Below are positions 3,550-31,300 of a stretch of DNA of 64,000 nucleotides, one piece after another (the stretch's first letter is position 1; every line of letters begins with the position of its first letter). Source of the stretch: Paramecium tetraurelia (Eukaryota); contig CT868252.1 in NCBI GenBank assembly GCA_000165425.1, positions 310,001-374,000 on the forward strand, given 5' to 3'. The notes below the pieces were generated by a model. That model did no database searches. It saw only the letters and a program-made list of their open reading frames with translations, and had not been told where the DNA came from. The translations under genes and the position numbers were made by a program.

Positions 3550-6500
3550 ATGGAAATAATCAAAATAGGTTCGATCGTGAGTATTTCTCATTTATAAGAT
3601 GATGATGCTCTCATTGGTGGAGATGGATTTATCAAAAAGTATTAGTAAATCACTAAAGTAGTGCTGTAATACTAAAAGGTATGTCTCCTTTAAATAAATT
3701 GGACACTAAAGATTTTAACATTAGCTATTTTAGTCAAATGAAGTATTTATAGTTCTCATAATAGCATTCCTAATTGCTTATTTGTAGTATGTCCAAGAAC
3801 ATCAAATGGAAAGAAAGTAGAAGTTGCCAAAATCTTCCCTTAGAGAAAAAAGAAACCTTTTGGATCAATAAATGATGATGTAACTGATCAAAAAAGTGAG
3901 GTTACACCTGTAAGATCATAAGTACTATTGTATTATGTATGCTAATAGATTAAATCAGTAACCCACTCTGTGCAACCATTATTGAGCGAAAAGTAGGTAA
4001 GAGACAATCAGATGAATTTGTTTAATGAATTTAAATTTAATGTAGATGGGTTTGAGAAAGAGAAAGGCAATTATGTTAAATATGAAGAGCCAATCTAATT
4101 ATTGCATTTAGCGTCATCTAAATGGCTTTGTTCATTGTTGGATGAGGCCAAATTTGAAAATTAAAATTTTAAATTGGCTTTGAGTGATTATACTAGCGAT
4201 GAAACTCTATTTAAAATAGTAGCCACTTATAAATATTAAAAAGAAGGAGATCAAATAGTATATTCTCAAGAAATCGTCAGGATTATGCGTATGATACCTT
4301 TTCTTGGGAAACCCACTTATTTACATTGTTCAGGTGAGATACCATAGAAAGCCATTAAAGAGTATAGAGAGAATAGTGAAGTTAAGATTTAGAAGAGAGA
4401 AATTAATGCATCGCTTGAAGAATCAACATCTTGGAAAATTAATCTATTCGCTGAAGAACTACCCATTGATGGTGATTTGGTATGGATTCATCACTCTGAA
4501 ACTTGTTCATAATTGGCTGTTGATTATGAAAGAGATCTAAACAGAGCTAAGATTTCTGTGTTTCAAACAGATTTAAGTGAATTATCATTTGATAATTACA
4601 GTGGCAATGCATATTCAATGTGGATAATTGAAGGTGAAGATTATAAGAAAGGAGGACCTTATTTATATTCTAATAATTATAGATTAAAGCATTTTCATAC
4701 AGGGTTGTATTTAGCTTGTGTCAGAGTAATCCCAAAGGAACAAGAAGATATTAAGATTGATCCATATGGCAAAAAGAAAGTGATTATTCCAAAGAGTAAG
4801 AAGGTGCCTGCCACTTTTGCCTTATAAGTCTAGCCTAACAAGGATTCTTTGTTTAGATTTGAACCCTTAAAATCAGTTAATAAGGATGAAATTTAATCTG
4901 ATTTTATTTAAATTAGAAGTGTCACTTAAGGAAAATATCTAGATGTTATTAATAAATTCCATCAAGATGAAAATACATTGAAACCAGTAATATTAAATCA
5001 AAAGAATGAACATGCAGTCTTTAAGATCTTCAGAGCAAATAAATAAGAAACCTAAGAAGTACTATTTTTAGATTCATGTACAAAATAATTAAGAAAGTAT
5101 TAATTTTATATCAATTTGCTTTTTAAGTTTGAATAAAATTAAATGTATTAATCATTATCTGATGATGTAGAGCTATTGAAAATAAAGACCAAAAAATTGG
5201 CTACTGCTTAAAGATGCATTTAAAACTTAGATGATTTTCTTAGATAAAAAATATACAATTCAAGTCCATCTTAAAAATATGGATTTATATCTCCTAAAAG
5301 GTAGAAACTATTGAAAGATCAACATTTCTTTGATGTGCTGTTACAAATTCTTACATCCACAGTCACTAAATAAGAATTAGAAATATGGTCGAATAAAAAG
5401 GGAAATCTCAAGGCATTAGAATAACCATCCATGACTGAAAAAAATCAAAGAAAATAATAAACCATCTCTGAGAAGGATAAATTAGAGCTGTCCAATTCAA
5501 AGGTTGAGGTTTGCAATATGATTTTCGTGTTGCTACAAACTAGTGTAATAAATAATACAAGCAATTAACTTTATCTGTTTGAACGATTGCCAGATTATCA
5601 ACATTATTGTAAGTATCTACCATAGACTATTAACTTTTTGATTGAGATGGTGAAGAGCAATGAGAAAATATTAATAAACCTATGCAACAATTTAAAGATC
5701 GAATTTGATTACATAAAAAAACAGGAAATTGAAGATGATCTTAAAAACAAAGTCAAAGTGTTAATAAATTTCTATGAGAAAGATGCAGGAATACAGTAGG
5801 ATGTTTCAATTCCTGTAAAAGTGCATGATCGTATCATTACAAGACCAATCAATATAATACAATATTTCTTCAACTTGATTATTGATGACACTGCCAAAAA
5901 CAATGAACATTATTTGAGATTTTTGAGACATATTTGTAGATATAAAAATAATGCCATTAGTATCAATTAGGAGAATTTGTTTAAGTTGTATAAGAAATAT
6001 AATAAATAAACTAAATTGTTACAAATTGAAACTAATAATGGATGCATAATTGATAAGGAAATCTCATTTTAATATGAATTATTACAATTCTTTTCAGAAG
6101 TATCTTATGGTAGAAATTATTTATGGTAAGCAGAGTTGAGTCCATTGTTTGAGAAGGATATTCTAATAAACTAGATCTGGAATCCAAATCAGGTTGAGGG
6201 TAATCAAATAGATGATAAATTAAGGTCATATTGGTGCAGATTAAGTAGAACTCTGTATATTGATTAATAACCATTCTAATATTTGATTGTTCCTAATTTT
6301 TGTCGATTGTATTCCCCTTATCAAGACTAATTGAAAAACAGGAATGATGAGGAAATTGAGAAGCAATTCAAATTGAAAAAGATGTTTAAATACATAAAAA
6401 CTAAGAGAAGCGAAGTCTATGAGGCAATAGCCAGTCGTGCATCTAGTGATTTATTAAATGATGAATTGGTCTATAATGCAGCTGATTAAATCTTAACTAT

Positions 6501-9500
6501 GTTATAATTAGACATCATGCCAAATAAGTATTACAACAAAATAATTAAATATATGTCAGAAATGTTCATATATGATAGAAAGAATCTTGATTATTTGAAT
6601 GCTGCAGTCAAAAGCTATCAAAAAACAGTTACTGAGAGGAAGAGTAAAAAAAGTATAGTGATCAATCAATTTGGAAATGTCTTTAGTGGAATGAAAGATC
6701 TCATATAGTTAAAATAAGAGGATAAGGAAGAAATTGCAGAAGAGGAAGAAGACGAAGAAATTAATTTATATGATTAACCGAAATTGTTTCTTAATCCAAT
6801 AATGAAAGGATTTATGGCAATGAGTAATCAATTGGAAGGGTTGATAACTTTACCAAAATCATAATAGGAAATTGAATTTAAATTGAAAGTGTGTTCAATT
6901 CTTGATCATTTCTTAGATCGAAGACAGAACTTCCTTATTTCTAACATTTTATTATTCTTCTTAAAATATTAATATACAAATGACGATTTGTCAGATGAGG
7001 ATGATGATTAAACTATTAAGGCTGCACCTAAGATATTTAATAATAACTACAAAACATTGATTCCCACTATTGCTAGAACTGGAATCGATGAGATTGATGA
7101 ACCAGAAGATACAACTTAGGATTTCCTATAGATGGCAGTTAAGAAGCCACCTACATTTACTAACTATTTCCAATAATATAACATCAAATCTGAAGATGAA
7201 TTCTAAGAATTAGATTACTACTTGAGTTAAGCATAAAAGTTTGATAATAATGAGAGATTGAGTGAAGATTAATTAAAGGAGAAATAAGTGGCAAGTTTAT
7301 TACCCTATTTGATGTCAACTTACTTTTTAGTTAAGGATTAAGTTTTAGAGGAAAGGTGTCTTAATGTAATTATGAGAGTTTTTAATTAAAGAGAAGAGTT
7401 GCGAGAAAATATGAAAAAGCTGTAAATCTTATTTGATGATGATAATATAAAGATATACGAATTTGTTGAACATCTCCAAAAGGATTTAAGAGTAATGGTG
7501 GAGAAGACTGAAATTTGGTTGACTCAATTTAGGGCTGGATATGATGTTGAAGAACTAGATAAATGTGCCCAAATCATTAGACAATTAACCCTGTGTATGA
7601 GATAAGGAGTTCAAGTGAATGATCGCGAGCTAGTAGTTGAAGTAGTCAATAAAGAGATCAATGATTCTGAAAAGTAATCTATAATGACATTTCTAAAAAT
7701 TCATGAAATAGTAATCAATCTCATTTAAAATGGTATGGCACATTTTATTTCTGTTTTGAATGATGAATTCATCAAAATAGAAAGAAAAGAACAATTATTA
7801 TTGCTATTTTCTAATGCATTTAAGTTTCTCATTTGTTATTGCACGAATAACAAGGGAAATCAATTAATACTCTATCAATATCTAGAGATATATTTATAGT
7901 TTATATAATATGATGTTGGACAATGCAAACTTTTAATTGAAATATTTAGAGACAATCCAAGACTATTAAACACTGGAGTTAAATCCTTAGTATAAAGATT
8001 AATCGAAATAATAGAAAGAGAAGGAAGACAAGTGAAGTTTGTTGAAATGTAAGATTTATGATATTCATTTAGACTATTAAATTTAATTAGTATTGCAGGA
8101 TAATATTTACTGGAAAATTAAATTCTGATCTTAAATACTTTCTTGCCTATGAGATCATTGAAGGAAACGGAACAAAGACTATTATATGCAGAAGGAAGTT
8201 AATAAAAAGATCTTCGTTTTTATTTTGATGATTAATTTTTGGAACCTGAAGAGAATTTGATAAAATAATTGGAAGCTATTGATTGGAAAGATTGTTACAG
8301 AGATGAACCATTTTTATATCATTCCAAGATTCTAGATTTGCTATTGTAAACATCTTTGATTGATAATACTGTAAGAGAATACAATCCTTCACTCATGCCT
8401 ACGGATAATTTTAATATTAGTGTATTTAAATTAAAGAAAATGATCAAACCAAGTTATCTATTGGAAATCTTAAGATTAGATGATGATATGGTATCTCTCA
8501 AGCAAAGATTAGCAAGAATGCCAACTCAATTTATTAAGGGTTAAGCTAGTTAATATCAGGATGAATAATTTAATAAAAAGAAAGGTTATACAGCTCTGAA
8601 ACCAATAGTATGCGAATTCTTGAGATTAGTACACATTGTGAGTGAAAAAAATAATGCTTAAGAGGGATTGCTATCCTAATTAAGCAGACAATTTATACAT
8701 TTTGTTGAATTCGAAAGCAAAAAGTTAGAATTTGTTGCAGCTGGAACGGATTATTAAAATTGTTATGTAGATTATATTATAGGCTAAGTTATTCCACTTA
8801 TTTTATGTTATCATTAAAGAGTGTTAAGTGTTTAATAAGAGGATGTTAAAAATGCATTAATAGAATTTTCTAGTTAGTTTGCATAAGCTCTTTGCTCAAC
8901 TTTCTACTAGAAATTGACTAAGTATGAACAGCTAGAAATAATATCAAAGTTGAGGGAATATTATCAAAATGAATACTATGAACCTGCCTATAGGTAGGAA
9001 GGAGAGTAATCAATATTACATCTATAGCATATGCAGTTTTAATTAGAGGATGGTGAGGACTTATAGCAGCCGATTGAAGAATAGCATGTCTAATCAATTT
9101 AAAAGAAATCTTAATCCAAATCAAAGAATTTATTAAGTTAATTTGCTTCCTTGAATTTATCATTGATTAATAAAACTAGCAAACACAAAAGAGGCGATTT
9201 AACTCCAATTAAATTACAGGAACAATGGAAAAGATTTGCCGAGGAGTTGTTCAGATCTCCTAAGTTGGAAGAGCAAATAGACATTGAGAAAGAAGCATTG
9301 GCAGATGCAATCATTGGAATAGATAAATTAATATAGGAGCCTTGTGAAATTAAACCATCTTTGGAATCCATATTAAAGAAATTCATCACATTTCTTTAGA
9401 CTGCTGTATTACAATAGGACAATAAGGGAACTATTGTCATATTATTAAAGATAATGTCTAAGATTATTGAGAAGCAAGATTCAGATGAAAAGAAAGAATA

Positions 9501-12368
9501 CTATTAGAAATTATTTGATAATTTGGGAGCAACAAGAATGGTACTCAATGTGATCACAGATTATTCTAAATTACTAAGTAATGAAATGCTGTATTATCTA
9601 ATTTCCTTTATTAATGTACTTCTTAGAAATGGTAATTCACAAGTACAGAACACAATATTTACGTTTTGTCAGACTCAATAGAAAAGTGAGGTGATGTTTT
9701 AGACATTTGCTAAGTATTTGGAAATTGCTGCTACTTCAGGAAGAGACAAGAATGAAGATAAGGAGGAAGCTGAAGTTTAGAAGCAAATAGTAAATTGTAT
9801 ATTGAAGTTCTTTTAAAATTGTACTGAAGGACATTATTAAGATATGTAGAATTACATTAGATATTAATATAATTCAAGAGCATCTAAAGATCTCATCAAT
9901 TTAGTAGCAGATTTATTTAAAAATTATGACCGAACTAAATAGAATTTCAGTAATTTAATGTGTTGTTTGGATACACTAAATGAATTAGTTTAAGGTCCTT
10001 GTGCTGAGAATCAATTAGCAGTTGCAGATTCTAAATTTTTTGATGTGGTCTAAGAGATGTTTCCTTTAAGAAAAGGTGCTGTATCATAATAAAAAGCAGT
10101 TAAGTCTGCAGCAACAAAAAGGATAAGTGTGTTGCCATCCCAATCGGTTTCTAATCTTTTAACAAGAGGAATGAAGGCACAATTGTAAAACAAGATTTTA
10201 GTGTTGGTTCTGTCATTGTTGGAGAATAGGGAAATCAAAGGAAAGAATTCTATAATAAAAAGGATTATGAGAGTATTGCCAATGAATGTTTTAGAAAGAC
10301 ATTTGAGTAAGATTTATAAGAAATGGTTCAATAAATATACAGGTGATTATAATATGCAAGCATTTGAATTACTGAAGATAGATGCAATGGATTTAGATGA
10401 AGAAAGTTAGGAATTCAAGGATTGTGAAATTATCATATAGAATGGATTCTATATCATGTTCTTGATTTGCTATTATATGGAGAGTGATGAAGAGATCGAT
10501 TCAGTCTTTATGGGATACAACAAATAATATTTAAAAAGTTAAATTTAATAGAATTCGTTGTTTGATCCAAACTCTACCTTAGGCTAATTGTTTGCTTTAG
10601 GTATGGAATTATATGAAATGTCCTTATTGAAAACCTAATAGATGTTTAATGAATTGAACAAGACCAGAAAGGATGATCCAGAATTCATCTTAGAATAGTA
10701 GAAGCGTAAATAAGAGGAAAAGAAGAAGAGATTGAAGAAAGCTTTTATGTTCTTCAGAGCTAGAACAGCTCACATAGAAGTAGTTAGAGATGATCAAATA
10801 GAATTAGTGTTCTTCCCATTATTACCTTTCAGTAAATTAAATAAGGATGAGAAGCAGTCTTTTCAACAAACAGTCGATCGTTCTTCTGCTAAATCTAAGG
10901 TTCAGGATCTCATGGAAAAGAGTCCCGAGTTAATCTAAATCATGAGACATGAGGAAGAGATGAACAGATTCTATAAGCAATATAAACTCATTGGATTCTT
11001 TGCCAATTATATACAATTGTGGAAGGACTTAGCCTTCTATTTGACTCTGATAATCAACACAATGATCATAGCTTCCTTTTCACATCAATCGGATCCAGAC
11101 AGACCAAAAGAGGATGTGAGTAGTGAAGCTTTGGATGAATACGTATTCTTTAGGAAAGATGAATGGACTTAAGCATAAACTAAAGAGTTAATCAGTGCAC
11201 TAGGATATGCCATGATGGTTTGTTCCTTGTTTGTTGTATTGTTTGTCTTAGCCAGAATAGCTCCCCTTATTATCAAAAAGGCTTTGCAAAGAAAACCCTT
11301 ATTAGAAGGACAAGGAATGATAAAGCTATTAATAAATTGGTTGGCCAAATTCTTTTTCGTGCTTTTTTATTGTTTATAAGATTTCCAACTTAGTTTACTA
11401 TTTGGGATATGGAGCATTATCTGTAATTGGTACTTTAGTACATCCCTTTTTCTTTTGTTTCCATTTGACAGTCATACTAATAAGATATCCCACTTTGAGT
11501 AATGTTGTTAGAGCAGTCACAATGCCTTGGCAACAATTAGTGCTGACTCTATTGCTAATTATTATCATTACATACATCTTTACACTTATTGCTTTCTATG
11601 CTTTACAAGATCCCTTTGGATTGGATTGCAAGGAAGTAAGTATCTGCTTCTTATAAATATTTGATAAGAATTTCAAAATCCCTGGAGGAATAGGAGGTGA
11701 TATTACGAATAATAATCCATCTCCTACTTATGAGATTTTTAGATACCTTTATGATCAAATTAATAATCTATTGTTAGTTATTATCATGGTGAGTATTGCA
11801 TCAGGTATTATTATCGATACCTTTGGATAACTAAGAGAAGACGAAAACAAGATGAATAGTGATATTAAAGATAAGTGTTTCATATGCGGTTAAGAGAAGT
11901 AATTACACATTAATAATAATTTAGTATCATTTTCGAAAGAAGTTCAGATGGATCATCGGGGGGATTTAAGAATCATATAAGACAGAATCACTATATGTGG
12001 AATTACTTATATTGTAAGATTTTAGTTATTAACTTTTATTAGATATTGCTTATTTGTAATGGAAGGATCCATAAGATTATTCAGGCATCGAATCCTATGT
12101 TGATAAAAAAATAAAAGACACAGATTTGAGTTGGATTCCTTTTGGAAGGGCTAGAGAATTAGACAAAGGAGAGGATGAATCAGAAAAATAGGCTAAACAG
12201 ATGGAACAATCATCCAGTAATATTGCATCATTGTTGACTCATTCCAGTGATATAATTTAAGCACTTAAAGAGAAGAAAGAAAAAAGAAAACAACACTTCA
12301 CTTAATAAACTTAACCAACACAATATAAGGAGTAAATCTTATCCCAATAATCAATGGCATTATTATGA
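3550..12368 (+). CDS. Inositol 1,4,5-trisphosphate receptor / ryanodine-receptor family Ca2+ release channel (Paramecium CRC type)
   Basis: N-terminal MIR-type segments (IQLLHLASSKWL, YRLKHFHTGLYL), RIH-associated motifs (FFQNCTEGHYQDMQNYIRYQ, CLDTLNELVQGPCAENQ), TM region (LVHPFFFCFHL..PTLSNVVRAVT), pore PGGIGGD, SGIIIDTFGQLRE, C-terminal KCFICG and HIRQNHYMWNYLY. One frame break near 11359-11390. Confidence 0.95.
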
Positions 12369-21060: not shown

Positions 21061-21439
21061 CAAAATTAATTTTAATCAATATAAAAATTAATATTCTTAA
21101 AATTTATCAATTTATTTAATAATTTCATAGAAAGAAAAACCTATCTTATTTTAGAAATTTTAACTTTAAAGAAACCTAAGAATTTTTAGAAAATTCAATT
21201 AAAAGATATTAATTAATTAAACCTAGATTTTATAAAAAAGCAATAAGATATGATTTACAACTTAGTCTGAATACAATTAAATGGAATATAAGATATTTGT
21301 AAGGAGAGACGTTTCCAAGTATATACAATTCCAAATTTTGATTTTTAATAGCTTTATCAAAATCTAGTCCACCCCTGTAGAAAGAGCTTAAAAGTTATTG
21401 ATAATGTTCAATATTGATAAATATAATTTTATTATTAAA

Positions 21440-23639
21440 ATGTCAGTTATGAGTTAGAATAATGATCCCTCTATGAAATAAAGAGACAATAATCGCCAAC
21501 AAATCACATCACTAAGTAAGCATTTATAGGTTCATAGTCTAGATCAATTATCAAATATGTATGGAAAGTCAAAGCCAGGTGAATTGGCATAATCACTAGT
21601 TTATGGTGATAAACCCAAAAAAGAAAACAATCGTCCCTCAAAATAAATGTAAACTGCTGTTTCTGAGAAACCAAACTAATGGTAAACGCGAACTTTGGCT
21701 GTGTCTCCTTCCAAATTTACAGTTCTCGCCTAATAACTTTATAATCATATCCCAGACACATTGGAAGCCCATAAATCTTAAAGAGCATTCCATGTTAAAG
21801 ATTAGAAATTGTTGTTGTCTCCAGAGAGATTACATTCACTACCTAATTAAAATGGAGATAAAACTCCAGAAGTCTGTAATAGACTCCTTGAATACAAGAC
21901 CTTTGTAAGTGACAAGAAACAAACACTCAAAGAATAATTGGATGCTGAATACTTGAGTCAATGCAGCTTTTAACCACAAATAGATGAGAAGAGTAGAAAA
22001 ATGGCCATAAAAGCTACAAATCAAGAAGTTCGTTCTGCAGATGAATTTCATGAATAATAAATGAGACATCTTCAAAAAGTCAATGAAAAGAGAGAAGTCC
22101 TCTAGAAACAATAAGAGGAAGATGAATAGGCTGAATTATCTAGTCCAAAATTAACAGTTAAGACTTAGAAATTAACATTAAAATATTGCGAGTAGCCTCT
22201 TGTTGAAAGATTGCATGAAGTCAAGTCTAAGACTTAAACATTACCTGATTCTACTTTAGGTCATTCATTCAAACCCTAGATATCCAAGAAATCCAAGGAA
22301 ATCAAAAGAGAAGAGTCAGTCTAAGATTTCTTATACAATGATGCTAAAAATAGGTTAGAATAAAAGAGATAAACTGAAACTATGATTCCATAATCAGTCA
22401 TAGCTCCTACTGACAAGAGTTAATCTTGGTTTGTTCAAAGATTTATCAAGGAATTCTATTACTAATTGAGTGGTTTAGATAGAGTTCAAGAAACAAAGGA
22501 TTATTCTAAGATATATTAGGATGACTTCTAAAAAATATTGGGAGGTCTAGGTTTTGGATAATGTGATATGTTGTGGAATGAGTTGAATAATGGATTTTAT
22601 GTTTTATCAAGAAACTTACTGGTTATCCTATTAGCCATCCAAGCAGTACCATAACACTTAATAGAAATACCATTGTATAAGCCTAAAGTGGAAGAAAACA
22701 TTTAAGTTAAGTCTAAATATTAATGTGATGAGAATGGAAATCTGATATTGAGTGTTGGGGATTGTTAAGAATTACACAAGATGTTCTACAAATTATATTT
22801 GAATACTAAACAACAGAATGGAAATGGAGTTAGAAGAAGAATGGCTCGTTCTCCATAGCCTGACATCAGATGTGGATCACCCAAGATATCAGATAGAACT
22901 AAACAATTGGCTGAAGCCAAGAGATAAGATTCATCATTGTTTGAATGGTTCACTCAATAAGAGGAGAAGAAGAAGTAGGGTTTGGAGGAGTTAAAGAAAC
23001 AAGTAGAGGAGGAAAGGATGAAGGAGTGTAAATCTATCTAGAGAGAAATTACAATAGATTTACAACAATTAGCCAAGCCTCTCTAAAAGCAAGAGGATAG
23101 AACAACTGTGGATGTGGAATTTGATAATCAATAATAGCATTGCACATTCCAACCATAGATTAGTAAACCAGCCTCAAAGACTTAAGCAAGTAATTATGCT
23201 TCTCAAGAGATGGAAAAATAGGCTGCAAGAATGAAGGAAGCTAGATTGAGATAGAAGACACTTGCAAATTTAAAGAACAAGGGAACCACCACTAATAATA
23301 CCATTAGAAGAAAGGAGAAGTGTCTTACTGAGAATGAACTCAATAATGAACCAAAATAAAAGAAGAATAAGAGTAGACCAATTAGTGACAAGACCACTCC
23401 CATGTTGTATGTAGATGTTAAGATTGAGGATGGCAAAAGTGCTAGAATTGTAGTGTTTGAAGGGGATACTTCAATCAGTTTGGCCAATAAGTTTGCTAAA
23501 GAACATAGTAATAATATTTATTAAACATTAATTAGAATTGGATGAGAATATGAAGGAGAAACTTAAGGACTTGTTGGATTAATAGATTAATTCTTATTTG
23601 ATGAAGATTGAAGAAGAGTAAGAACAGGAAGATGATTGA
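21440..23639 (+). CDS. Hypothetical coiled-coil protein with (C/H)xFxPxI repeats and a C-terminal LYVDVK..RIVVFEGD domain
   Basis: Open frame with two introns; CSFQPQID, HSFKPQIS, CTFQPQIS repeats; PMLYVDVKIEDGKSARIVVFEGDTSISLANKFAKEH near the end; TGA at 23637-23639. Confidence 0.8.
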
Positions 23640-23680
23640 TTTATATATAGATACTTAAAATATAAATTTTATATATTAAA

Positions 23681-26600
23681 ATGTATGTCAAATTTTTGAC
23701 ATAGTGACAAGTTCACAATTAAATAGTATCGAATTAAATAATTTTACAGTAATGTTTAATGAAGAACTAGGAGTCATTGATTATGAAGTAGAAAGTGATG
23801 ATTCAATTGAGATGATTGATAACCCAGAGGATATTGTTATTCCAACTCCAATATAAGAATAGAAATAAATAACTTAATAGATTATAGAGTAACAACCACA
23901 GCAATAACTAAATATAGAAAACACTGAAACCATTGAAAGACAATAACTTGAAGAAGAGTAAATGTTACGTCGACCTTATGCATTAAGATGGAAAAAGAAA
24001 TCAATTAAGAAATTAGAAAAAATCACCTCTAAATTGACTGATTAAGATTACGATGAAATTAAAGATGTTTTAACTAAAAAGATAGCAATGTCTGAATCCA
24101 AAATTAATAATAGCAATTATTACAACAAAAATAATACTACCACTAATAATAATACTAATAATGATGTAATCATATCTGGATCGATCCTAAAAAATCCATA
24201 AACGACACTCAATTAAGTGCAGAAATAGAAACAATTCTAAGTTCTTGTTGAGCATTTTGCAAATAAACCAGACTTTCTAGAAGCCATTATTGCTTAAGAT
24301 CTTGAATAAGAAAATGAAAACCATGACGGAGGAATACTCAAAAAACCAATGATAGTACCACCAAAGGCAGGACTAAAGAAATAATAAGGCAGAAAGAAAG
24401 TAAATGTTACTTTTGAAGATCAATCGTAACCACCAAATGGAGGAATTTAATTCATTAAAACCAGTGTGTTACCATAAAAGTAGCCTCCTCCCCCACAACC
24501 TCAATAGCAAATTCAAAATATACTCTCCAAATTCTAAGAAATTAGAGAAAAATCTGCTGCCCCTCCATAAACCTAATATACAACTGCTGTCTAAGAGTCT
24601 TCTAATATGCCTTTAGGCACAGGAGCCTGGTATCCTAATAAATAGGATAGAAAAAGTCAGCCTTTTGTTCCTCCTCATGCTGGATCTAACCCTAAGATGT
24701 TACCAACTGTTAGTTCAGTTTAAATGATTTCCTCATCTTAGGCTGCCCAATAGTCTTTAAATCATAAATTTCTTGAAATGAACCAGAATTAATCAAGAAT
24801 CAGTAATAGTCCTTCCAGAATTAGAGACATGATTACATTATAATATACTTCTTCATATTAGGTTGATCGACCTCCCATTATGCCAAGTCGATAACAACCT
24901 GTATTCTAATAATAAACGTTGGAGAGGAATATCAATTATGAATTGAATCAAGCAAAAAAAAATAAGGAACAATTGAGTGGTCATTAATAATCTTAACTTA
25001 GGGAGTCCTAAATCAAATTATAAGCAAAAATATAAGAAAGTGTTAAGAGACAAAGTGTTGTTTAGCCAACTATAGAGGAAAACGATTCTGATTTTATGGA
25101 TGACGGTATGGATAGTCAACCATTTATAGATTTTAAGAGAGCAGGCAACATACCTTGTGCATCTTAACAATAAACATATTAATAATATTGGCAGGAGATT
25201 AATTTCAATACAGATATTCCTAAGGATTATTATATGAATGAGAAGTTCAGAGTGGATTTGGAATAAGAAATAGAAACAAGTGATCCTTATGAACTATTTA
25301 AATTATATTTTGATTAGAGCATTTTCAAATACATATGTCTGATATCAAATAAAAGATAATGCATAAGAATTGATGAAGATATTTTGGAATCATTTATTTC
25401 AGCACTGATCTACATTTTCTATATCCAATTATTAGGCATGAGAGAGATCAAAAGAGTCAGATTTGATCATATACTTGATTATGTGACATTTGGTCATATT
25501 TGTAAGGAAATCCGTATTGATGAATTAGAAGATTATTCCTTCATTTTTGAAAAGATAAGTAAGAATTTTAAATCCCATTACCAACCAGAGGAATTCTTAA
25601 CCCTCGACTCGCCTATATTTTATTAAAATCACAGTGTCGATGGTCTCATATCACTTTCAGATGGAATGAAAGGATATGTGTTGGACTTTATTTATGGAAT
25701 TAAAGAATAAAAGATTCTTCAAAGTTTATAGATCTATTAAGGAAAACACCATAAACTGTATTTAGGACCTGATGTATCATCTCTAAATCTGATCATCCAA
25801 TTAAAAAAGAAATAATTTGGTGCATTGGCCAAAGTAGTAGACAAATAGGTATGTATTTTATTATATTTAGACCCAACTTACGCAGGATTAGATTTAAGAA
25901 GTAAAATAGAATGCACAAAAGGGGTAGAGCACTCAATTTTTATCATCTGACAATTAGACAATAATGCTTATTTTTGCAGAAAGATAATAACATTTATAGT
26001 AAGTTGAGGGATTTGTATCTTCTTTTGCTGACTTCACAAGACTTAAACCTCAAGATACTAAAATTAAGAGTGATGTCAATAAGCCGATCATCTTATATCT
26101 CTATGATAAAATTAAGACATAATATGATAAAAGAGGTAAAACTTATTAATATTCTCAAATACCTCATCAAAATGGCAATTAACATTTAGAAATATTAGTG
26201 TAATTAGTTTATTCTAGTATTTATAATGCTAATATTTTAAATAAAATAAAAAACTAATCAGCCTCATTAACACCTGAAAAAGCGAAATAAATGTATTTAG
26301 AATTTGTTAAACAATTATTACACTCATTCTATGTACGTAGTTTGAAAAGAAGAGGCATTAATTAATTTCCTTAAAATCACACTTTGGAATCGGGAGACAC
26401 AGGAACCTTTAGTTGCATTGAATGTGGAGAATCTAGTTAAACTATTTGTAGAGAATGTTCAAATCATTTCTAAATGTTGATACCCGTTTGCAGAAGTAAG
26501 AATGAACAATGCTTAAGATCACACATAGAAATGTTAGCAAGTCAACCAAAAATCACAAATACTAATAGAAAACTAACTAATAAATAAGCTATTGTCAAAT

Positions 26601-27031
26601 TTGAATTTTATCGTTCTCAAATTGAGGCTTCTAAAGATTCAAATGCATAATCTGCGTTGCCAGTTATTGAAGATACTTTATAGTAGTTAGACACTTTGGA
26701 TCCTGATGAAGAATTATCAATAGGAATTCAAACTTTATTGGTTTCATTGTCAGACATGATACAAAAAATGTTCCAATAACCTAACGTCTTAGTTCCATAG
26801 AAAATTCAACAACATAAATAAGAAGTCTACACTTTAAGTTAAATAGATCCCCCTATTAAATCAGTCTAGCAATTATAAAAGTCAATCTCTTAGGTTTATA
26901 ACAATTCATAGGAAGTTAGCCATAAGTCCTAAATAGTGCCTCAAATATATAAAACAAAAATTGGAGAATAAATGAACATAGAACCTTCAATTCAGAAATT
27001 GCAAGCTAGAGTTGCCAGAATCAATAAATGA
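23681..27031 (+). CDS. Domesticated piggyBac transposase, PiggyMac-like (PgmL family), about 1085-1100 aa, degenerate catalytic triad
   Basis: DDE_Tnp_1_7-like core (SDPYELFKLYFDQSIFKYICLISN; SKNFKSHYQPEEFLTLDS; LSDGMKGYVLDF; GKHHKLYLGPDVSSLNL; KPIILYLYDKIKTQYDKR; SSIYNANIL; YLEFVKQLL), Cys-rich domain at 26378-26524, intron 25849-25870. Start is 23681 (with intron 23704-23726) or 23752. Confidence 0.85.
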
Positions 27032-27253
27032 TATATATCATCATATAATTATTATTTAATTTTCTATAATCCATTAACATTATCAAATGCTACAAAAAAT
27101 ACTAATTACTTAAGAACTATATATCTTATACAACAGAAGTCAGTTCAATTTAATTGTTTATGCAGATGACTAAATTAGATTACCATATGATCAATATATC
27201 CTGATGTTTTTGTAAAGTATTTTAATTAATGAAATCACACATATTATTATTAT

Positions 27254-27671
27254 ATGCTAAAAAAAGCATTAACTTATTGTCTTTAAGATGATGACCCAGT
27301 TCAGGTTTCTGAATTAATCGGCGTTAAAGAATATTAGAAATAACCAAAAATATGTCAAAGCAACTTTGTGACTTCTTCCGATCTGAAATAGATGATAATA
27401 AACCAAAAGAGGGACAACAGTGTTTAATCATATCGCAAAATTTAGCATTACGATGCTGACTTAAAACCAATCAATCGAACATTTGATTGCAGATTGCCTT
27501 TGAATCAACATACTTGCAAAAAATACATCAATCTCAAAATGATCCAAGAACCTACTAAACCTAAATTGTACTTTGGAATCAAGCATTAATAATTTAAAGT
27601 AAAAATATAATTAAAATGAACATTAGATAAAAATCAAGATGCAAGGCAGACGATTGGAAGACATGTTCTGA
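27254..27671 (+). CDS. Small hypothetical protein
   Basis: MLKKALTYCLQDDDPVQVSELIG...; a 28-nt intron 27599-27626 joins to IKIKMQGRRLEDMF*. Confidence 0.6.
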
Positions 27672-27717
27672 ATATAAAAACTTTGACTAATTAATTTATT
27701 AATTTTTTTATTTGCTC

Positions 27718-28257
27718 ATGAATTTTAACAGATAGGAATTACTTAATTTGTAAAATAGAATATTAAATCGTCCGAAGAGATTGAATTCTGTCTATGTGGC
27801 ACCAGCATTTGATGATATAGGAATCTTGGCTGAATTACCTAATAATAAAGTCCCAAGCTTAGGATTCAAGCAATAAAGTGCATTAAGAACCTAAATCAAA
27901 AAATATCGAAATTTATATCTATATGACAAGAAGCTATTTAGAAACAAGAAAGAATCCAGAGACTTCAGAGAAAACATTGAAAACAAAGGATCCACTTATT
28001 ACATCAATAGTTCGAAATTATCTGCTTAGCCTCTTTGGGAAGATGATATGAAAATTACTAAATTGAGCATCATAAAATCAGAAATATTGAGAAACAAAGT
28101 TCCCGATATTCCAAAATTACACAATAATTCCTAATCCAATTGTCCCAGAAGATTATCTAATATCAACCCAGAACCAATCTAATTTAAAAACCTAGTAGCG
28201 TTACCCTCTATCCGTGGTTGGGATGATAACAATCAAAACACCTAGAGATCAAACTGA
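27718..28257 (+). CDS. Hypothetical protein, 179 aa, single exon
   Basis: Open ciliate-code frame MNFNRQELLNLQNRILNRPKRLNSVYVAPAFDDIG...LPSIRGWDDNNQNTQRSN*. Confidence 0.7.
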
Positions 28258-28307
28258 ACTATGTCTATTTATTATTAATTTCTTATGTAAAATATAACTA
28301 ATTATCC

Positions 28308-31300
28308 ATGGATTATAACTTCCTAAAAATCATGGTAACATAAATTAATAATCACTTTTTTGAGTGATGTAGTCCAAGCTTATAAATCCCTCGACAAAGA
28401 AAGTGGAAATTTCAATTCGAAAATTGAGCTTACTAATTATAATTAATAACTACTTATGATAAATAATAGAGTTTGTTAGTTAAATTTTCATGCTTCAAAA
28501 AGTTAGGCTTTATCAATTCCAAATATCTATCTAGCCCCAGGTGAATATAATATTTATTAACATACGGATGTTAATAAAATCATCATAATTATGTTACTCA
28601 CTATTATGAAAAAAATTTATGGTAGATTAAACCAAAGTTACTCGACATTTCAATGAAAAACACTGTGGGTTAAAAATTCATTTTTAATTAACCGTAAATA
28701 TGCCAAGATTGGAAGTAGATTACTTTACTTAAATCAATACTAATAGACCTTAAGTAGACCTTAAGAGTAATTAAAAAATAATTAAAGGAAATATCAAAGT
28801 ATCCAATCACTTTACTTAATACCATTACAATGTTTCATGATGAATTCAAAGTCGAATTAATATTCCTAGTTGATATAATATACATTTATATGTAATTAAG
28901 AAATTTTCATTAATAGAATTTACAAATTGTCATTAATCAACGAAAATTTGTATTTCCATGCTTTAATAATGAAAATTGATATTTTAATATCATTATTATT
29001 TATTAATTATACTAATGATGTTTGCGTTGTCAAAGTACAATGAGACTTTGAATTTGCAAAGCATAGTCTAAAATCAAAAAAATAACCTATTTTCTTCAGA
29101 ATAGGTCTTTGAACATATTATAAGTTAATTCCTTACAAAATTGAAAAAGTCAAATGATAGAATATTGGCTATCGAGTATCTCATTTCAAATTTTCCAAAC
29201 AATAATTACTTTATCAATTACAAAGAACAATTAGATGGAAAACTGATTGGTAAAAAATGGTAGAAATTCAATGATCATGGATTATAGAAAAACTTTGAAT
29301 ATTTTGTTAAAAGAAAAAAATTGCATGATGTACATTAAAGTTTTGATTGGAAAAGGCTAAATTAGCTTCTAGAAGATAAAGAATTTGTATTAGCTTGTGG
29401 ATTCCCCACTTCTTTAGATAAAAGAAAACATATTTTCGAGAAGCTACAACATCATGGTTTCAGAATAATAGATTTAATGAGGCAATGTAAATAGAAAACA
29501 TTTTAATTAAATTCTATTATATTAAAAAATTTGATATTCTTTTTCTTTATACCTTAAGAATTGGAAATAAGTCATTTGGAATAATAAGAATTATTTTAAA
29601 TATTAGGAGAAATTTTAAGCTAATTTTGGATTTAATTTGAATATCATTATTAATAACTACAAAGTTTAACTTAAAACTTAGACAATGACTCTAGTGCAAG
29701 TCAGTTAAAAAATCTAAAAGACTTGTTAGATTTTATAAAGCAAGGTTCAAATGTATAATATAATTCAATATAATAATTAGTTAAGATTATATTACAGAAA
29801 AATCATATACATTCCTTAAATTTAACTAATATTGAGATTTTGATTGACAAATTATTACCAATTGATTTTGATCTTTAACATATTTTCTATATGATGTGCT
29901 TCTATTGTTTCCAAAAATTTGCTCAATATTATTCAACATAGTTGGATTTGCAAAATCCAAATGTAAAATTTATTAACATTAAATAATACCTCTAAAGAAT
30001 AATGAGCCCAAATGATCAACTTAATTAAAACTTAATGCTTTAGTTATAAGAATATAAAGATAGGCAAATTTAACTGATCACCTAATAGAAGATATGTCTA
30101 AATTAGTCTATTAAAGATTTGTTACAATAGATTACTAAAAAAAACTGGTATGAACTGATTAAAAAATTGCATGTCATAAACTTGAATTCATATACATAAT
30201 AAAATGCAAAATTTTTTAATTTGCTGACAAATATAAGTTCTGAAAAGATATACGAAGTAGCAAAACTATTAGAAACGCTTATTATGGAGGATAGTTTAAT
30301 TAAAGTTGTTTTGATATTAGAATAATAAAAATAAAATTTTTATCCTCAAGAATTAGAAAGTATTCTTAGAATTGTTTTAGAAAATTCATATCAAAGCATA
30401 ATTAATTTTTAACTACTTTATTCTGTTTTATCTTAAGATAGGAGTCAAACTGAGAAAGAAAATATTCTAAAAGTGGCTGAATACGATGAAAATTTACCAC
30501 TTGAATAAAAAATTTAAATGCTTTCCAATTTTTCTTATGATCAGTTGAAATTGGTTTTTAATTAAGATGTGCTCATCAATACTTTAATAGAATCATATTT
30601 ATAAAATTTAACTTAAAATCATTTCTCACTCCTTTGAAGTTTTAAAAAGATTGTTTTAAATAAACTAACAGTTAGAATAGGAGAATTAATACACCAATTT
30701 TTTCTCTCCTCTTTTTTAATACTTGTAAATTGATTAAATACATCTATTAATATATCAAAGAAATTTAGATCAGATTTCTTTAGATGATTATATTACAACT
30801 ATAACAATATTATATAAGGTTTTCAGGTAATCGTAAGGATAAAATCAACAGAAAAATTTTAAGAAAGCCATAGAAAGTCTTTCAATATTTCCATCAATCT
30901 ATTGTTTCAATCATTTTCTTGAATTATTTTTAAGTGAAAGTAGTTTGGAATAAATAATAAATATTTTTAAATTAGTTTACCTTTGGTAAAATAAATTAAT
31001 ATAAAAATTACAGATTGATGCTGAATTGTTTTGCAAATAAAATCCCAATATGTATAGTGAAAAATTCTCAAAAATTAACTATTTTGGCATAGATTAATTA
31101 GAAGTTACAAAGCTACAATAAAAAATTATGAGTGATATTTATCCAAGATCTCTAAACATATCTTTAGAAGATTTTAATATTTCATTGACTTTGTTAAATA
31201 AGCAATAATAGGAAGAATTGGTGAAGAATTGGATTCAAAAGGTTAAAGACCCTGAAGCTTTTAAATAATTAATACCATTCTTCTTTAATATTATAAAAAG

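Follow-up and report, generated by a model that had tools for sequence, protein, structure and literature searches.

Paramecium tetraurelia excises its internal eliminated sequences (IESs) with PiggyMac (Pgm), the catalytic endonuclease, and with a set of PiggyMac-like (PgmL) partners. Here we describe a gene in a stretch of 64,000 nt of P. tetraurelia DNA (contig CT868252.1, positions 310,001 to 374,000 of the forward strand), called the window below; all coordinates are those of the window. The gene lies at 23752..27031 on the + strand. With a confidence close to certainty, we read the locus as a whole as the macronuclear gene PGML4a, coding for a domesticated piggyBac transposase that is proposed to be a non-catalytic architectural subunit among the Pgm and PgmL proteins.

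The published record on this protein is drawn here from excerpts of Bischerour et al. (eLife 2018, PMC6143343; eLife 2018 below), of a study in Mob DNA (2021) and of a 2025 preprint, and statements credited to them are limited to those excerpts. In eLife 2018, all PGML genes are induced in autogamy, at T5-T11, alongside PGM. Both PgmL4a-3xFlag and PgmL4a-RFP are found in the developing macronucleus, and HA-PgmL4a co-precipitates with MBP-Pgm at 500 mM NaCl. Knockdown of PGML4 lowers the nuclear Pgm signal by ~75% while total Pgm is unchanged, and all IESs are retained. The double knockdown of PGML4a and PGML4b is more severe than either single knockdown (also Supplementary files 6 and 7 of that paper). 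It has been shown in print, in the excerpted text, that stable retention of Pgm in the nucleus and the excision of all IESs require PGML4a together with its ohnolog PGML4b. The authors' proposal is an architectural role within a multi-subunit excision complex. The 2025 preprint calls PgmL4 the closest relative of Pgm; by its data, the PgmL4a-TurboID proteome contains Pgm, and the Pgm-TurboID proteome contains PgmL4. There, Pgm, PgmL2, PgmL4 and PgmL5 belong to a set that interacts with condensin I, and co-precipitation with condensin I is reported for PgmL4.

Binding to Pgm, localisation and requirement were demonstrated in these experiments; that PgmL4a works as a scaffold we infer. It would serve the Pgm/PgmL excision complex as a non-catalytic, architectural subunit and would act within the condensin I-interacting subset (Pgm, PgmL2, PgmL4 and PgmL5). 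It may help to assemble Pgm, or hold Pgm on chromatin, at TA boundaries.

Identity and structure of the gene

The G+C content of the window is ~27%, and long open frames appear only under the ciliate code, in which TAA and TAG are read as Gln. Two + strand frames, 23605-25950 and 25793-27031, are joined in frame by a 22-nt intron. The resulting coding region of 3.28 kb (23752..27031) holds 1085 codons, including 91 in-frame TAA/TAG and no in-frame TGA. The parts of the gene and of its product are, one per line:

23752..25848, + strand: exon 1 of PGML4a, codons 1-699 (open frame; start as in the orthologs and XP_001444348.1)
25849..25870, + strand: the sole intron, 22 nt, GT..AG, GTATGTATTTTATTATATTTAG (skipped in the X4 and X9 RNA contigs)
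25871..27031, + strand: exon 2 of PGML4a, codons 700-1085 and the TGA stop at 27029-27031 (translation; RNA depth falls after 27018-27151)
23752..25191, + strand: N-terminal extension, aa 1-480, rich in Gln, Pro and Asn (no family match)
25282..26230, + strand: piggyBac core PF13843 (DDE_Tnp_1_7), aa ~511-819, split by the intron (Pfam; profile against 9c0f_C)
25606..25608, + strand: D619, first triad position, in LTLD (under LSLDE of 9c0f_C and ITIDE/LTIDE of Pgm and T. ni PB)
25765..25767, + strand: G672, second triad position, in LYLGPD (under IYMDNY of 9c0f_C and VVMDN/ITCDN of Pgm and T. ni PB)
25771..25773, + strand: D674, acidic residue two positions past the lost second Asp (alignment A2)
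26126..26128, + strand: D785, third triad position (under KGVD of 9c0f_C and GGV-D of Pgm and T. ni PB)
26378..26524, + strand: core of the cysteine-rich domain (CRD), H869..H917, H-C6-H, 49 aa (regular expression; 6zop_A alignment)
26339-26566, + strand: published CRD construct, PgmL4a(856-931) (Mob DNA 2021, excerpt)
26567..27028, + strand: C-terminal extension, aa 932-1085 (translation)

The spliced translation is identical in 1085/1085 residues to GSPATT00012475001 (XP_001444348.1, CAK76951.1), which NCBI names 'uncharacterized protein GSPATT00012475001' (1085 aa, P. tetraurelia). Supplementary file 2 of eLife 2018 lists GSPATP00012475001 / PTET.51.1.G0340197 as PgmL4a. Because the identity to the accession published as PgmL4a is complete, the gene at 23752..27031 is, by its sequence, PGML4a (GSPATT00012475001 / PTET.51.1.G0340197). 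The first-pass annotation of the window, made from the letters without database searches, had proposed a PiggyMac-like partner and favoured one of the long members, with PgmL4 and PgmL5 as examples; the protein turns out to be PgmL4a itself. Numbering agrees as well. The excerpted text of eLife 2018 gives residues D619/617 and D785/783 for PgmL4a/b and 1085 residues for the longest PgmL, and our own count gives D619, D785 and 1085 aa, the figures published for PgmL4a. In the parts of Supplementary file 1 at hand, all 11 non-empty 'PgmL4a-Ptet' rows agree by eye with the window translation, and the row across the exon junction reads VVDKQ-TQLTQDQ. The only PgmL4b-Ptet row compared, around the first triad position, shows three differences (KNFKNNY...SVEGL, against KNFKSHY...SVDGL in the window).

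A word-indexed search with the core returned three proteins among 692 candidates, from P. octaurelia (98% identity), P. sonneborni and P. primaurelia, with lengths of 1078-1087 aa. These three ortholog products agree with PGML4a in start, splice junction and end. In the 90% cluster that holds the P. octaurelia ortholog, XP_001444348.1 is one of four members. Both the word-based and the phmmer searches gave PgmL4-group sequences only (3 of the 692 candidates, six phmmer matches, and self only among 2705).

The transcript is seen in all four RNA sets: X22 and X23 are raw stranded oligo-dT runs (1208 and 768 reads placed), and X4 and X9 are contig sets. Reads of X22 and X23 cover 23.67-27.02 kb with the first mate nearly always on the minus strand, and depth is ~0 beyond 27.02-27.15 kb. 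Since the first mate lies on the minus strand, the RNA is of + sense under the usual convention. Contigs span the gene in pieces, from 23749 to 27030 in X4 and from 23863 to 27014 in X9. The 22 nt at 25849-25870 are missing from the single spanning contig in each set (depth 23.3 of 23.3 in X4 and 99.1 of 99.1 in X9), in accord with the intron-containing gene that had been annotated. In X22, three reads end loosely at 25868 with exon-1 letters.

The start and extent given in the first-pass annotation need correction. It placed the gene at 25200-26530, a span limited to the core and the zinc domain, with ~40 nt of 5' spacer before an ATG at 25234. This ATG is the internal Met495. Because 494 coding residues stand upstream of it, the 40-nt spacer is wrong, and the true start is the ATG at 23752. 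RNA contigs cross 25200 unbroken (X4 23997-25506; X9 23863-25506).

Several RNA variants were observed in the gene. A T>G change at 25515 (CGT>CGG, synonymous) is carried by the single covering contig in X4 and in X9, by 4/8 reads of X22 and by 8/14 reads of X23. Minority variants occur at 26458 (5/53 and 10/31) and at 26786 and 26788 (2/33 and 9/27). These could be cross-mapped reads of the ohnolog PGML4b or strain differences.

Domains and the catalytic triad

The PF13843 check that had been suggested for the presumed piggyBac core gave scores above the gathering cut-off, for exon 1 as well as for the orthologs. Exon 1 alone matches PF13843 with E=1.3e-9 and 38.3 bits (cut-off 22.4) over profile positions 1-198 of 349, and the second half of the profile falls past the intron. 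All three full-length orthologs match with E=2.2e-13 to 5.2e-13 (49.5-50.7 bits) and reach profile position 348. All chains of the PDB were searched with a profile built from five PgmL4-group sequences. It aligns aa ~580-823 (~250 residues) with the piggyBat transposase 9c0f_C at E=7.5e-4, and it matches the nuclear magnetic resonance structure of the Pgm CRD, 6zop_A, at E=1.1e-6 with 8/8 zinc ligands aligned. A single-sequence phmmer search of the PDB with the P. octaurelia ortholog (P0001) gave 2qg8_A at E=0.038, which is chance level, and a weak match to the CRD at E=0.46. The same ortholog against 1.84 billion representatives gave six matches at E<=0.001, three of them with Paramecium source names.

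The zinc domain, binuclear and of the PiggyMac type, follows the core. The pattern H-x11-C-x2-C-x7-C-x2-C-x10-C-x6-C-x3-H, read by eye in the first pass, is an exact match by regular expression at residues 869-917. In the published description excerpted here, the Pgm CRD is a cross-brace, with a His-Cys2-His and a Cys4 part, between H701 and H749. The excerpts of Mob DNA 2021 report that PgmL4(856-931) does not bind DNA, binds weakly to the N-terminal tail of H3, and shares with the Pgm domain an acidic pI. The long flanking regions are less characteristic. In the N-terminal extension no Pfam family scores above its cut-off, and the ESM Atlas search with aa 1-480 gave no usable match. DUF5617 was considered there and dismissed as chance; at E=0.039, its 14.5 bits fall short of the cut-off, 26.3. 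The C-terminal extension of PgmL4a is predicted to be rich in coiled coil (eLife 2018, excerpt).

The triad register was taken from the 9c0f_C profile alignment and from the published alignment with Pgm and T. ni PB (Supplementary file 1 of eLife 2018, in the part used here). In this register the PgmL4a triad is D619 - G672 - D785: the first Asp is kept, the second is replaced by Gly, and the third is kept, leaving the DDD set incomplete. D619 aligns with the catalytic Asp of 9c0f_C, Pgm and T. ni PB, and G672 lies beneath the Asp of the same three proteins, as had been read by eye from LTLDS (25606) and LYLGPD (25765). At the third position TQY(D/E)KR is found beneath KGVDRA of 9c0f_C. The first-pass annotation had called this region diverged. 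That holds for the motif, which changes from YNxxMGGVD to YDKIKTQYD, but not for the Asp, since D785 is present at 26126. PgmL4 alone among the PgmL proteins retains two of the three catalytic Asp residues.

Within the aurelia group the second position is Gly in 6/6 sequences and the first is Asp in 6/6; the third is Asp in 5/6 and Glu in P. octaurelia (P0001, TQYEKR). The first and third positions are acidic in all eight alignment rows covering them. The position two residues past the lost Asp is D or E in 9/9 rows of alignment A2, where canonical piggyBac proteins have W, Y or F. Two distant PgmL4-like proteins, P0005 (469 aa, 27% identical) and P0006 (274 aa, 33% identical), have the triads E-D-E and E-N-E. 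The zinc domain of P0005 matches the Pgm CRD 6zop_A with E=1e-10, far better than that of PgmL4a, so this protein bridges PgmL4 and Pgm. Taken across the PgmL4 group, these residues hint that acidity at positions 1 and 3 may be under selection while position 2 drifts.

Nothing observed speaks against the identification of the locus as PGML4a, but the reading of its product as non-catalytic and piggyBac-derived has some limits. The term 'non-catalytic' follows from the missing second Asp and is to that extent putative. The tie of PgmL4a to canonical piggyBac is made through profile methods only, and none of the six phmmer matches is shown to be Pgm or a canonical piggyBac protein. At the intron, the raw 58-nt reads have a depth of 5 in each of X22 and X23, and none carries the 22-nt deletion as such; splicing is for this reason taken from the contigs and is not quantified by reads. 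The culture stages of X4, X9, X22 and X23 are coded, and autogamy-specific expression is taken solely from eLife 2018.

The alternative that survives best concerns the pocket itself. D619, D785 and D674 could form a non-canonical but live metal site, so that PgmL4a shares directly in IES cleavage and is not a scaffold only. This could proceed by two routes: the pocket could complete the active site of Pgm, or regulate it, in trans, or it could cut one strand. The acidic residues described above would fit such a site: positions 1 and 3 are acidic in 8/8 rows and Glu in the distant P0005 and P0006, and the residue two past position 2 is acidic in 9/9 rows, not aromatic as in canonical piggyBac proteins. 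Knockdown of PGML4 also removes all cleavage. This loss is, however, explained by the ~75% loss of nuclear Pgm. The Gly at position 2 in 6/6 aurelia sequences argues against a working site, and eLife 2018, in the excerpted text, cites Mitra et al. 2008 for the finding that T. ni PB loses its activity in vitro when one triad residue is mutated. Moreover, the aurelia core is 92-98% identical overall, so conservation of a single residue there says little. No mutants of D619 or D785 were found in our literature search. What this analysis adds to the record is the Glu at the third position in P. octaurelia, the acidic residue two past position 2, the E-D-E and E-N-E relatives and the G-P pair of PGBD5 (see below). 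These additions leave the verdict unchanged and give a small chance that the pocket retains chemistry; we consider this improbable, though it is the least improbable of the alternatives. If true, PgmL4 would take a direct part in IES cleavage and not act by scaffolding alone. We retain the reading of PgmL4a as a proposed non-catalytic architectural subunit.

Host gene, flanks and neighbours

TTAACCC is the end motif of piggyBac elements. Six copies occur in the 64-kb window, where 5.55 would be expected, and the flanks of the gene hold none of them. One copy (25597-25603) lies inside PGML4a, over the codons F-L-T-L-D that hold D619; since the window count equals the chance expectation, this internal copy is a coincidence. 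No terminal inverted repeats had been visible in the first pass, and the search of 22500-28500 agrees, with no credible pair around the gene. It gave 55 inverted pairs, of which the longest 25 were inspected. These are 15-37 nt long, AT-rich and 70-94% complementary, and none convincingly brackets PGML4a. One pair, I12 (23715-23735 / 27137-27157, 21 nt, 76% complementary), lies near both ends of the gene and was rejected, being AT-rich and no better than dozens of others.

Orthologs are found at 85-98% identity in P. octaurelia, P. pentaurelia, P. primaurelia and P. sonneborni. Identity was also calculated by region between the window protein and five aurelia orthologous sequences:

N-terminal extension: 85-95%
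core: 92-98%
zinc domain: 92-99%
C-terminal extension: 83-95%

A preprint gives dN/dS (the ratio of nonsynonymous to synonymous substitution rates) of 0.02-0.11 for PiggyBac orthologs of P. tetraurelia versus P. octaurelia, in the part excerpted here. As a separate observation, a 366-aa P. sonneborni protein annotated as 'Transmembrane protein' (P0004) matches PgmL4 in three broken stretches with 47% identity. Judged from these stretches, it has the look of a second PGML4 copy in this species that has decayed or was mis-modelled.

Ordinary cellular genes stand on either side of PGML4a in the window. Their products are an IP3R/RyR-like channel, a kinase of the protein kinase type, a URGCP-like GTPase, TRAPPC-Trs85, and MORN-repeat, WD40 and patatin-like proteins. 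The channel is seen as two adjacent long frames at 3742-11664 on the + strand, with Ins145_P3_rec, MIR and RIH_assoc domains, which are probably one IP3-receptor/ryanodine-receptor-like calcium channel gene. For the gene directly upstream of PGML4a, whose frame 21254-23545 runs on in frame to 23639, Pfam gave no match at E<=1e-5. This gene appears to have a short intron near 23506-23535, judged by loose read ends (11 and 6 reads), and its end is marked by a poly(A) loose end near 23673, only 78 nt before the ATG of PGML4a.

Conserved orthologs, the published purifying dN/dS (in the excerpted part) and host-gene neighbours are all found at this locus, as in a domesticated transposase. Two other readings, a pseudogene in decay and a copy of a piggyBac transposon (active, or immobilised recently), would share the PF13843 core and the cysteine-rich domain, which autonomous piggyBac elements also have. 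Against them stand flanks with neither terminal inverted repeats (22500-28500) nor TTAA-CCC ends (64-kb window), the incomplete triad, and 1085 intact codons with no in-frame TGA. Neither fits with a transcript that is spliced (in contigs) and polyadenylated, with orthologs in four other species that include the non-transposase extensions, with the dN/dS values cited above from the preprint excerpt, or with an essential knockdown phenotype. We regard both as extremely improbable. A previously undescribed PiggyMac-like paralog, which the first-pass annotation had left open as a new paralog, gained no support from the tests and has hardly any probability either, given the 1085/1085 match to the accession published as PgmL4a.

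The domesticated gene PGML4a is not a new discovery. The gene, its broken triad, zinc domain, expression, localisation, Pgm binding and knockdown phenotype were already in print in 2018-2021, and the 2025 preprint adds a proximity proteome to this record. The locus has value for calibration: from raw ciliate DNA and without aid, the first pass correctly saw a piggyBac gene that is domesticated and catalytically impaired, and it named the right subgroup. Its errors were a gene start off by 1.48 kb and the kept third Asp, which was overlooked.

Comparison with known systems

At the second triad position vertebrate PGBD5 shares with PgmL4a a G-P where canonical proteins have D-N, and a similar S(I/V)(T/S)SLNL stretch follows (IIFTGP--SITSL in PGBD5, KLYLGP--DVSSL in the window, with LGPDVSSLNL at 25765-25800). 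It differs in having His at the first position and Cys at the third in the published alignment, as excerpted, and is not known to act in ciliate DNA elimination. The G-P resemblance may be convergent or of shared ancestry. Tetrahymena Tpb2, Tpb7 and Lia5 are also domesticated piggyBac proteins of programmed DNA elimination; no Tetrahymena protein is among the six phmmer matches to the P. octaurelia ortholog.

The RNase-H-like core of piggyBat (9c0f_C) aligns with PgmL4a, with the first and third Asp in register. Autonomous piggyBac elements differ from PgmL4a, which has no terminal inverted repeats or TTAA ends, has lost the second Asp and carries long extra N- and C-terminal regions. The CRD of T. 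ni PB differs from the Pgm-type CRD, which is the type in PgmL4a and does not bind DNA (Mob DNA 2021, excerpt). Pgm combines a domesticated piggyBac core with an H-C6-H cross-brace zinc domain, as PgmL4a does (8/8 ligands in 6zop_A). Pgm keeps the full DDD triad, with VVMDN at the second position, where PgmL4a has Gly. Similarity between Pgm and PgmL4a is too low for phmmer (CRD match of P0001 at E=0.46).

PgmL4b (PTET.51.1.G0480099), the ohnolog from the last whole-genome duplication, has the same architecture and a redundant function, with the triad D617 / - / D783 in the excerpted sources, and is encoded at a separate locus outside the window. The closest system is PgmL4a as published in eLife 2018, from which the window gene does not differ in any feature tested: all 1085 of 1085 residues, D619 and D785, the CRD at 856-931 and both extensions are the same.

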